Assembly (NCBI RefSeq): GCF_001677475.2
Contig: NZ_CP015229.1
Origin: Escherichia coli
GTDB taxonomy: Bacteria; Pseudomonadota; Gammaproteobacteria; Enterobacterales; Enterobacteriaceae
Strand: one strand, 5' to 3'
DNA length: 64,000 bases
Shown piece by piece: positions 13,411-17,995 of the stretch. A model generated the notes under the pieces. That model worked only from the letters and a program-made list of their open reading frames with translations. It did no database searches and was not told the DNA's origin. The first letter of the stretch is position 1; the number at the start of each line of letters is the position of its first letter. The position numbers were made by a program, and so were the translations under genes.

Positions 13411-13613
13411 GAAAACACTCCTGCGGAGGCAAAATCGAATTTGCCTATTATGTCAGAAAAACGCCACAGACTGTATGCCACCTCGGGCGTAGCGCTGGGT
13501 CCTGCCTTTACATGCCATATCCATCTTTCTATATTCAAAAATTGAATGAGTAATTCATAAAAATTCTGATATTTATAGCAAAAGTGGCGAGCCACCCTTA
13601 ATGGACGAATACT

Positions 13614-14579
13614 ATGGGCAAAGCAGTCATTGCAATTCATGGTGGCGCAGGTGCAATTAGCCGCGCGCAGATGAGTCTGCAACAGGAATTACGCTACATC
13701 GAGGCGTTGTCTGCCATTGTTGAAACCGGGCAGAAAATGCTGGAAGCGGGTGAAAGTGCGCTGGATGTGGTGACGGAAGCGGTGCGTCTGCTGGAAGAGT
13801 GTCCACTGTTTAACGCCGGAATTGGCGCTGTCTTTACGCGTGATGAAACCCATGAACTGGACGCCTGTGTGATGGATGGTAACACCCTGAAAGCCGGTGC
13901 GGTGGCGGGCGTTAGTCATCTGCGTAATCCGGTTCTTGCCGCCCGGCTGGTGATGGAGCAAAGCCCGCATGTGATGATGATTGGCGAAGGGGCAGAAAAT
14001 TTTGCGTTTGCTCATGGCATGGAGCGCGTCTCGCCGGAGATTTTCTCCACGCCTTTGCGTTATGAACAACTACTGGCAGCGCGCGAGGAAGGGGCAACAG
14101 TCCTCGACCATAGCGGTGCGCCACTGGATGAAAAACAGAAAATGGGCACCGTGGGGGCCGTGGCGTTGGATTTAGACGGTAATCTGGCGGCAGCCACGTC
14201 CACGGGCGGAATGACCAATAAATTACCCGGACGAGTTGGCGATAGCCCCTTAGTGGGTGCCGGATGCTACGCCAATAACGCCAGTGTGGCGGTTTCTTGT
14301 ACCGGCACGGGCGAAGTCTTCATCCGCGCGCTGGCGGCATATGACATCGCCGCGTTAATGGATTACGGCGGATTAAGTCTCGCGGAAGCCTGCGAGCGGG
14401 TAGTAATGGAAAAACTCCCTGCGCTTGGCGGTAGCGGTGGCTTAATCGCTATCGACCATGAAGGGAATGTCGCGCTACCGTTTAACACCGAAGGAATGTA
14501 TCGCGCCTGGGGCTACGCAGGTGATACGCCAACCACCGGTATCTACCGTGAAAAAGGGGACACCGTTGCCACACAGTGA
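13614..14579 (+). CDS. iaaA: Isoaspartyl dipeptidase / L-asparaginase family Ntn-hydrolase IaaA
   Basis: 321-aa ORF with the GTVGAVALD autoprocessing region; first gene of the iaaA-gsiABCD cluster. Confidence 0.88.
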
Positions 14580-16437
14580 TGAACTTGATGCCGGTGATGT
14601 GCTGGCGGTTGAAAATCTGAATATTGCCTTTATGCAGGACCAGCAGAAAATAGCTGCGGTCCGCAATCTCTCTTTTAGCCTGCAACGCGGTGAGACGCTG
14701 GCAATTGTTGGCGAATCCGGCTCCGGTAAGTCAGTGACTGCGCTGGCATTGATGCGTCTGTTGGAACAGGCGGGCGGTTTAGTACAGTGCGATAAAATGC
14801 TGTTGCGGCGGCGCAGTCGTGAAGTGATTGAACTTAGCGAGCAGAGCGCTGCACAAATGCGCCATGTGCGCGGTGCGGATATGGCGATGATATTTCAGGA
14901 GCCGATGACATCGCTGAACCCGGTATTTACTGTGGGTGAACAGATTGCCGAATCAATTCGTCTGCATCAGAACGCCAGTCGTGAAGAAGCGATGGTCGAG
15001 GCGAAGCGGATGCTGGATCAGGTACGCATTCCGGAGGCACAAACCATTCTTTCACGTTATCCGCATCAACTCTCTGGCGGGATGCGCCAGCGAGTGATGA
15101 TTGCGATGGCGCTGTCATGCCGCCCGGCGGTGCTGATTGCCGATGAGCCAACCACCGCGCTGGATGTCACTATTCAGGCACAGATCCTGCAATTAATCAA
15201 AGTATTGCAAAAAGAGATGTCGATGGGCGTTATCTTTATCACGCACGATATGGGCGTGGTGGCAGAGATTGCCGATCGGGTACTGGTGATGTATCAGGGC
15301 GAGGCGGTGGAAACGGGTACCGTCGAACAGATTTTTCATGCACCGCAACATCCTTACACCCGTGCGCTGTTAGCTGCTGTTCCGCAACTTGGTGCGATGA
15401 AAGGGTTAGATTATCCCCGACGTTTCCCGTTGATATCGCTTGAACATCCAGCGAAACAGGCCCCCCCCATCGAGCAGAAAACGGTGGTGGATGGCGAACC
15501 TGTTTTACGGGTGCGTAATCTGGTCACCCGTTTTCCTTTGCGCAGCGGTTTGTTGAATCGCGTAACGCGGGAAGTGCATGCCGTTGAGAAAGTCAGTTTT
15601 GATCTCTGGCCTGGCGAAACGCTATCGCTGGTGGGCGAGTCTGGCAGCGGTAAATCCACTACCGGGCGGGCGTTGCTGCGCCTGGTCGAATCGCAGGGCG
15701 GCGAAATTATCTTTAACGGTCAGCGAATCGATACCTTGTCACCCGGCAAACTTCAGGCATTGCGCCGCGATATTCAGTTTATTTTTCAGGACCCTTACGC
15801 TTCGCTGGACCCACGTCAGACCATCGGTGATTCGATTATCGAACCGCTGCGCGTACACGGTTTATTGCCAGGTAAAGAAGCGGCTGCCCGCGTTGCGTGG
15901 TTGCTGGAGCGCGTAGGCCTGTTACCGGAACATGCCTGGCGTTACCCTCATGAGTTTTCCGGCGGTCAGCGCCAGCGCATCTGCATTGCTCGCGCGTTGG
16001 CATTGAATCCAAAAGTGATCATTGCCGACGAAGCCGTTTCGGCGCTGGATGTTTCTATTCGCGGGCAGATTATCAACTTGTTGCTCGATCTCCAGCGTGA
16101 TTTCGGCATTGCGTATCTGTTTATCTCCCACGATATGGCCGTGGTAGAGCGGATTAGTCATCGTGTGGCGGTGATGTATCTCGGACAAATTGTTGAAATT
16201 GGTCCACGGCGCGCGGTCTTTGAAAATCCGCAGCATCCTTATACGCGTAAATTACTGGCGGCAGTTCCGGTCGCTGAACCGTCCCGACAACGACCGCAGC
16301 GTGTACTGCTGTCGGACGAGCTTCCCAGCAATATTCATCTGCGTGGCGAAGAGGTGGCAGCCGTCTCGTTGCAATGCGTCGGGCCGGGGCATTACGTCGC
16401 ACAACCACAATCAGAATACGCATTCATGCGTAGATAA
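14566..16437 (+). CDS. gsiA: Glutathione ABC transporter ATP-binding protein GsiA (two ABC cassettes)
   Basis: 623-aa product starting at TTG 14566 (PHSDELDAG...); two Walker A motifs (GESGSGKS twice); overlaps the iaaA 3' end by 14 nt. Confidence 0.82.
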
Positions 16438-16456
16438 CATTCAGGCGGAGAATAAA

Positions 16457-17995
16457 ATGGCAAGAGCTGTACACCGTAGTGGGTTAGTGGCGCTGGGCAT
16501 TGCGACAGCGTTGATGGCATCTTGTGCATTCGCTGCCAAAGATGTGGTGGTGGCGGTAGGATCGAACTTCACCACGCTCGATCCGTATGACGCAAATGAC
16601 ACGTTATCTCAGGCCATAGCGAAATCGTTTTACCAGGGGCTGTTTGGTCTGGATAAAGAGATGAAACTGAAAAACGTGCTGGCGGAGAGTTATTCCGTTT
16701 CCGATGACGGCCTTACATACATCGTGAAGTTGCGGGAAGGAATTAAATTCCAGGATGGCACCGACTTCAACGCAGCGGCGGTAAAAGCGAATCTGGACCG
16801 GGCCAGCGATCCGGCGAATCATCTTAAACGCTACAACCTGTATAAGAATATTGCCAAAACGGAAGCGATCGATCCAACAACGGTAAAGATTACCCTCAAA
16901 CAGCCGTTCTCAGCGTTTATTAATATTCTTGCCCATCCGGCGACCGCGATGATTTCGCCGGCAGCGCTGGAAAAATATGGCAAGGAGATTGGTTTTCATC
17001 CGGTGGGAACCGGGCCGTATGAACTGGATACCTGGAATCAGACCGATTTTGTGAAGGTGAAAAAATTCGCGGGTTACTGGCAGCCAGGATTGCCCAAACT
17101 GGACAGCATAACCTGGCGTCCGGTGGCGGATAACAACACCCGCGCGGCAATGCTGCAAACCGGTGAAGCGCAGTTTGCTTTCCCCATTCCCTACGAGCAG
17201 GCCGCACTGCTGGAGAAAAACAAAAATATCGAGTTGATGGCCAGTCCGTCAATTATGCAGCGTTATATCAGTATGAACGTGACGCAAAAGCCATTCGATA
17301 ACCCGAAGGTCCGTGAGGCGCTGAATTATGCCATTAACCGCCCGGCGCTGGTGAAAGTGGCCTTTGCGGGCTATGCAACGCCAGCTACTGGTGTGGTACC
17401 GCCGAGTATCGCCTACGCGCAAAGTTATAAACCATGGCCTTACGATCCAGTGAAAGCGCGCGAATTACTGAAAGAGGCGGGATATCCCAACGGTTTCAGT
17501 ACCACGCTGTGGTCGTCACATAACCACAGCACCGCGCAGAAAGTGCTGCAATTTACCCAGCAGCAGTTAGCGCAGGTCGGGATTAAAGCCCAGGTGACTG
17601 CGATGGATGCCGGACAGCGGGCGGCAGAAGTTGAAGGTAAAGGGCAAAAAGAGAGCGGCGTGCGGATGTTCTACACTGGCTGGTCGGCTTCAACCGGCGA
17701 AGCTGACTGGGCACTATCGCCACTGTTCGCCTCGCAAAACTGGCCACCGACGCTGTTTAATACCGCGTTTTACAGCAATAAACAGGTGGATGACTTCCTG
17801 GCTCAGGCACTGAAAACTAATGATCCGGCGGAAAAGACCCGCTTGTATAAGGCGGCGCAGGATATCATCTGGCAAGAGTCGCCGTGGATCCCGCTGGTGG
17901 TAGAAAAACTGGTGTCGGCACACAGTAAAAACCTGACCGGTTTTTGGATCATGCCAGACACCGGCTTCAGCTTTGAAGACGCGGATTTGCAATAA
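16457..17995 (+). CDS. gsiB: Glutathione ABC transporter periplasmic binding protein GsiB
   Basis: 512-aa product from ATG 16457 with signal peptide [26 protein letters not shown]; family-5 solute-binding protein. Confidence 0.88.

Follow-up and report, generated by a model that had tools for sequence, protein, structure and literature searches.

The gsiA gene of Escherichia coli encodes the ATPase that energizes glutathione uptake, as described in the literature on yliABCD. The question raised by this locus is where translation of gsiA begins. In the window, by which we mean the whole 64,000-nucleotide stretch of DNA analyzed here, moeA on the minus strand is followed by iaaA and gsiA, both on the plus strand. 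The same order of moeA and iaaA is found in the RefSeq annotation of the three E. coli genomes inspected. The longest mechanical ORF for gsiA begins at ATG 14458, well inside iaaA and in its +1 frame, encodes 659 amino acids and overlaps iaaA by 122 nt. A sequence-only reading of the window had described this out-of-frame overlap with coordinates that proved exact. It placed the true start elsewhere, at a TTG within the 3' end of iaaA, by matching the N-terminus PHSDELDAG of a 623-aa GsiA. We asked which codon starts gsiA, how that codon came to lie inside iaaA, and whether translation of one gene affects the other.

The gene in the window is E. coli gsiA (b0829, formerly yliA) as now annotated. 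Its product is 98.7-99.2% identical in amino acid sequence to RefSeq GsiA and contains two ABC_tran (E 1.5e-63) and two oligo_HPY matches in Pfam, the arrangement of a fused double ABC ATPase with oligopeptide-type C-terminal regions. Translation of the window from TTG 14566 gives 623 codons up to TAA 16435-16437, and the TTG is followed by CCA CAC AGT GAT GAA CTT GAT GCC GGT (P H S D E L D A G), in agreement with the N-terminus used in that reading. The RefSeq/PGAP coding sequence has this TTG and a 14-nt overlap with iaaA in three of three E. coli genomes inspected. K-12 gsiA (U00096.3/RefSeq) likewise has a TTG start, 623 amino acids and a 14-nt overlap, and differs from the window by strain-level substitutions only, for example Asn11 (AAT) in K-12 versus Asp11 (GAT, 14596-14598) in the window. 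Thus the TTG start, which the sequence-only reading had treated as an open question, is already known: it is the one used in the standard E. coli annotation, and published ribosome profiling supports it. The distance of 14 nt to the iaaA stop given in that reading is correct as the length of the overlap; the first bases of the TTG and the TGA are 11 nt apart. The coordinates of the features discussed are collected in Table 1.

Table 1. Features at the iaaA-gsiA junction (window coordinates)
Feature	Position	Strand	Description and basis
iaaA CDS	13614..14579	+	isoaspartyl/beta-aspartyl peptidase, 321 aa; stop TGA 14577-14579; ORF list, Pfam, RefSeq
Upstream extension of the gsiA frame, 36 codons	14458..14565	+	ATG 14458, ATG 14467, GTG 14521, GTG 14548; longest-ORF artifact, non-coding in this frame
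iaaA codon 314, AAA (Lys)	14553..14555	+	homologous codon is a TAA stop in Leclercia, Enterobacter and other genera
Shine-Dalgarno-like AAGGGG	14554..14559	+	6-nt spacer to TTG; similar motif in orthologues
gsiA CDS	14566..16437	+	623 aa, two ABC ATPase domains; ORF list, Pfam, RefSeq comparison
gsiA TTG start codon	14566..14568	+	RefSeq CDS start; TetRP depth (PMC4909307); homologous start codon in 25 taxa
iaaA/gsiA overlap, 14 nt	14566..14579	+	gsiA in the +1 frame of iaaA
GTG (Val12 of GsiA)	14599..14601	+	2006 K-12 start, since dropped; TetRP 0/0/3.0 (PMC4909307)

The gsiA region is present in 5,425 of 5,426 complete E. coli genomes. For segment 14200-14900 of the window, the highest identity to an E. 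coli genome is 99.4% (FDAARGOS_497), and most E. coli genomes reach 95-99%. The match to NZ_CM172609.1, an E. coli ExPEC from mussels, ends at query base 683 (equivalent to window ~14200-14882), and the gene is named there simply 'ATP-binding cassette domain-containing protein'. This pattern in the assembly suggests that gsiA may be disrupted or rearranged in that strain.

A UUG start is expected to have a Shine-Dalgarno (SD) motif 5-9 nt upstream, and AAGGGG lies at such a distance from the TTG. This SD would direct gsiA initiation on an mRNA shared with iaaA, and translation from the TTG would yield an ATPase beginning (f)Met-Pro-His-Ser-Asp-Glu-Leu. Footprints of initiating ribosomes at the codon are available from the tetracycline-inhibited ribosome profiling (TetRP) of Nakahigashi et al. 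2016 (PMC4909307), in which yliA/gsiA is row 8 of Table S2. The TetRP depth was 46.3/140.5/70.6 at the gsiA TTG versus 0/0/3.0 at the GTG used as the start in 2006 (PMC4909307 Table S2). The new site, a TTG, precedes the 2006 (U00096.2) start by 33 nt, and the 2014 K-12 record U00096.3 (gsiA left end 867520) already carries the same 33-nt shift (PMC4909307 Table S3). The call of Nakahigashi et al. 2016 is thus the same TTG as in the window and agrees with the 2014 annotation. The site was flagged 'not tested' under manual inspection (PMC4909307); the study lists no N-terminal peptide of GsiA, has no reporter fusion for this gene, and does not discuss the overlap or its origin. The TetRP peak falls within the iaaA coding region, 11 nt 5' of the iaaA stop, and some of its signal could in principle come from ribosomes translating iaaA. 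The supplements of the TRAINSPOTTER N-terminomics study have no gsiA entry, and a full-text literature search on the gsiA start codon, ribosome profiling and coupling with iaaA yielded nothing relevant beyond PMC4909307.

Comparison with related genomes points to the same codon. The comparison set consisted of 80 loci from one genome scan; Salmonella, Shigella and Klebsiella are not among the loci. A start-capable codon is found exactly 11 codons before Val12 in 25 taxa. It is TTG in seven of them (Escherichia, E. albertii, three Citrobacter, Superficieibacter and Pseudocitrobacter), GTG in nine (including Lelliottia, Enterobacter, Phytobacter and Pluralibacter gergoviae) and ATG in another nine (including Leclercia, Cedecea and Rahnella). 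In nine taxa, for example Lelliottia, Enterobacter, Cedecea and Siccibacter, the frame is interrupted by stops 9-36 nt 5' of the gsiA start. The position therefore switches among ATG, GTG and TTG with stops close upstream, as expected of a genuine start. Nearly all Enterobacteriaceae orthologues have an AGGAG/AGGGG-type motif 4-8 nt 5' of it.

The peptide encoded after the start is also conserved. P-H-S-(D/E)-E-L is retained where it is located wholly 3' of the iaaA stop, and also at a locus with no iaaA upstream (L009). Its serine codon is AGT in most taxa and TCT in Pseudocitrobacter. Conservation outside the overlap together with synonymous serine codons indicates selection on the GsiA protein and not on the overlapping gene. 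Homology of GsiA to DppD/OppD ATPases of known structure begins at residues 9-13, so the 623-aa protein has an ordinary short N-terminal tail. The PDB contains no GsiA structure, and the closest entries are Rv1281c, DppD/F and OppD/F. Adjacency of iaaA and gsiA is not universal: the two genes are ~230-300 nt apart at two Budvicia loci (L033 and L034), and at several Enterobacteriaceae loci (L009, L015, L017, L021 and L023) gsiA is not directly preceded by iaaA. Of these, L009 and L015 retain both an SD and a start codon at the position 11 codons before Val12.

Two other start codons have to be weighed against the TTG. Initiation at ATG 14458 (659 aa), with its 122-nt iaaA overlap, or at ATG 14467 (656 aa) would have the advantage of the strongest start codon, and in Escherichia and Citrobacter the frame lacks stops from 14446 onward. 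The profiling data do not speak directly to this position, as the TetRP search covered 60 nt on either side of the 2006 start and ATG 14458 is outside that range (PMC4909307). The open frame itself is unremarkable. With 16 stops among the 321 codons of the +1 frame of iaaA, a stop-free run of 40 codons has p ~0.13, and a gap of 65 codons occurs elsewhere in the same frame. We compared the 108 nt of the extension in the window with those of four other E. coli-type sequences, three Citrobacter species and E. albertii. Variation affects 36 columns, and 29 of these are third-codon positions of iaaA, which are second positions in the gsiA frame, where a change always alters the amino acid. Consequently, identity to E. 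albertii and Citrobacter is 53-61% for the gsiA reading and 92-97% for the iaaA reading. ATG 14458 is replaced by ACC in E. albertii, and in Lelliottia, Enterobacter, Cedecea, Siccibacter and others the upstream frame is closed by stops. No SD-like motif was found 5' of ATG 14458, and the AAGGGA 5' of ATG 14467 abuts the ATG with zero spacer. The extra 36 residues gave no domain match in the Pfam and structure-homologue comparisons. The 36 codons from ATG 14458 to the TTG do not belong to gsiA; the +1 frame of iaaA simply happens to lack stops there. An upstream ATG start is extremely unlikely. Conservation of the extension and ribosome profiling had both been proposed as checks in the sequence-only reading, and the former, like the published TetRP within its search range, came out on the side of the TTG.

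The second candidate is the GTG at Val12, from which the 2006 K-12 annotation started gsiA. A 612-aa protein beginning there would have zero overlap with iaaA and would open where the DppD homology opens, at residue 13, and the codon is GTG in most E. coli. However, this is the position at which TetRP depth is nearly absent, and it has no SD 5' of it. The Val12 codon is GTA in a GTDB E. coli-cluster representative (L004) and in a Citrobacter (L006), GTT in L008 and GTC in L018; this variation among GTG, GTA, GTT and GTC shows that it is not a conserved start. Moreover, the 11 codons upstream are conserved as protein in taxa in which no other gene covers them. We consider initiation at this GTG very unlikely. 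The TTG thus stands as the start of gsiA, and the overlap with iaaA that it entails has to be explained.

In the window, the 3' end of iaaA reads GGT ATC TAC CGT GAA AAA GGG GAC ACC GTT GCC ACA CAG TGA. We located the iaaA stop in relatives by walking the frame from the alignment start. For most Enterobacteriaceae in the sample, among them Leclercia, Lelliottia, Enterobacter, Phytobacter, Superficieibacter, Pseudocitrobacter and Siccibacter, and for a soil MAG, iaaA ends with GIYRE followed by TAA. In the junction alignments, GAA-TAA-GG is present in L011-L014, L016, L018, L027 and L048, and GAA-AAA-GG is present in the window and L002-L008. The AAA form of codon 314 is that of Escherichia, E. 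albertii and Citrobacter. In the TAA-type junctions, the stop lies just before or inside the gsiA SD (GAA TAA GGG GG or GAA TAA GGA GA), and gsiA starts 9-13 nt after the stop. In the AAA form, iaaA gains eight codons, KGDTVATQ, and ends at a TGA within gsiA codons 4-5. The gsiA start, SD and N-terminal peptide have not moved between the two forms. Because TAA occurs in many outgroup genera, it is taken as ancestral and the overlap as derived. The junction alignments thus show the overlap as the outcome of a TAA to AAA stop loss, a single T-to-A change, in Escherichia and Citrobacter. With this change, iaaA is read through the SD and the gsiA start to the next in-frame TGA. We assign a probability of about 0.92 to the joint reading that gsiA starts at TTG 14566 and that its overlap with iaaA was derived by loss of the iaaA stop.

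Loss of an upstream stop codon is a recognized route to short gene overlaps. As in known cases, one base change extends the upstream gene to the next stop inside its neighbor, and nothing about iaaA/gsiA is unusual in this respect. The Asparaginase_2 domain (PF01112) covers IaaA residues 5-310 of 321 (profile positions 2-308 of 309, E 1.4e-116). The domain is complete by residue 310, so the eight-residue tail lies outside the catalytic domain. A literature search for an ordered C-terminus in crystal structures of EcAIII (IaaA) found nothing useful. An IaaA-GsiA fusion produced by +1 frameshifting at GAA-AAA-GGG was considered and set aside, as nothing observed requires it and relatives of the TAA type lack the motif.

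Junctions of other kinds occur elsewhere in Enterobacterales: Pluralibacter and Cedecea have TGATG or TAATG, Erwinia and Rahnella have ATGA, and a Pantoea has ATGGCTGA. The iaaA-gsiA junction is thus labile in evolution, whereas the gsiA start stays fixed. What the present analysis adds is this census of junction types and the origin of the overlap by stop loss, both of which represent routine evolution of a gene boundary.

The position of the start raises the possibility of translational coupling. Ribosomes that finish iaaA would cross the gsiA SD and TTG before terminating, 11 nt past the latter. By re-initiating or by holding the site in an unfolded state, these ribosomes probably affect the initiation of gsiA. 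Coupled pairs are co-directional neighbors with no terminator or promoter between them, and iaaA and gsiA are such a pair. They share with described coupled pairs (ATGA, TGATG; Huber et al. 2019/2023; Brown and Wade 2025) the co-directionality, the adjacent stop and start, and an SD within the upstream gene. They differ from them in spacing. Efficient re-initiation has been associated with a stop-start spacing of ~-8 to +6 nt, with enrichment at -4, -1 and -8, the classes also tested in experiments (PMC10666635, PMC12548453), and its efficiency drops steeply with distance (PMC10666635). Beyond the enriched classes, close gene pairs are more often separated than overlapping (PMC12548453). The spacing in the window is -14 nt, outside the efficient range and unlike the enriched -1/-4/-8. 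Several orthologous iaaA-gsiA junctions do fall within it, and those of Rahnella, Erwinia, Cedecea and Pluralibacter have exactly the classical coupled geometries. An RNA hairpin masking the ribosome-binding site was examined as further evidence for coupling and rejected. The minimum free energy hairpin enclosing the SD and the TTG has -38.2 kcal/mol in the single sequence (z = -1.7; 12 of 200 shuffles as stable), and the consensus fold of 13 orthologues reaches only -5.4 kcal/mol with essentially no covariation, so that the hairpin is weak and not conserved.

The alternative to coupling is that initiation at the TTG is wholly independent and driven by the SD, with the overlap a neutral by-product of the stop loss. 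A good SD at optimal spacing, the lack of a conserved structure over the ribosome-binding site and an overlap of -14 nt that is not an enriched coupling motif are all in keeping with this. The start and SD are also unchanged in L009 and L015, where iaaA is not upstream. The ancestral layout, in which gsiA started 9-13 nt after the iaaA stop with the SD between them, fits the +9 to +12 nt class, which was judged by Huber et al. to be likely independent in initiation (PMC10666635). However, every ribosome that finishes iaaA passes the gsiA SD and start and stops within 11 nt, and some interaction is hard to avoid. Other Enterobacterales repeatedly place the gsiA start within a few nucleotides of the iaaA stop (ATGA, TGATG, ATGGCTGA), a pattern suggesting that proximity is favored, and a weak TTG may profit from a high local concentration of ribosomes. 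We rate full independence at a little under even odds. That coupling to iaaA translation contributes measurably to gsiA initiation has, in our estimate, about an even chance; the sequence-only reading took the overlap to imply coupling, but the geometry only permits it.

A stronger proposal would be that the stop loss in Escherichia and Citrobacter was not neutral and that gsiA became strictly dependent on, or throttled by, translation of iaaA. The change would have moved iaaA termination from 9-13 nt 5' to 11 nt 3' of the gsiA start, so that each ribosome completing iaaA would come to rest on the gsiA SD and TTG. We regard this as unlikely. If true, it would represent a lineage-specific rewiring of peptidase-to-transporter stoichiometry by an unusual -14 back-scanning coupling.

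The transcription signals around the two genes are consistent with a shared mRNA. A sigma-70-like promoter match (TTTACA, 17 nt, TATATT; 10/12) is located on the plus strand at 13507-13535, in the moeA-iaaA intergenic region ~80 nt 5' of the iaaA ATG. Between 13380 and 14700 no other promoter-like site was found, and iaaA itself contains none. A sole promoter-like site upstream of iaaA fits co-transcription of gsiA with iaaA. Three terminator-like matches on the plus strand inside iaaA are weak consensus matches. On the minus strand, 14561-14578 (CACTGTGTGGCAACGGTG TCCCCTTTTT) resembles a terminator, with a hairpin and then a T-run. It is the reverse complement of the region containing the gsiA SD, the TTG and the iaaA stop, and its T-run complements GAAAAAGGGG; this element is almost certainly a chance consensus match.

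Downstream of gsiA, a 601-aa ORF beginning at TTG 16190 would overlap gsiA by 248 nt through 89 extra codons (window 16190-16459). ATG 16457 in this ORF has GGAG 7-10 nt upstream and lies 19 nt after the gsiA stop. The part of the ORF from this ATG begins MARAVHRSG..., which we take to be the signal-peptide N-terminus of GsiB. The ORF track thus appears to over-extend gsiB by 89 codons.

For gsiA, the longest-ORF rule over-extends the gene by 36 codons, and the curated TTG is backed by independent comparative and profiling evidence. The finding means little beyond correct annotation of the gene. The iaaA/gsiA junction does offer a natural pair of geometries, +10 nt versus -14 nt, for studies of stop-start spacing and coupling.
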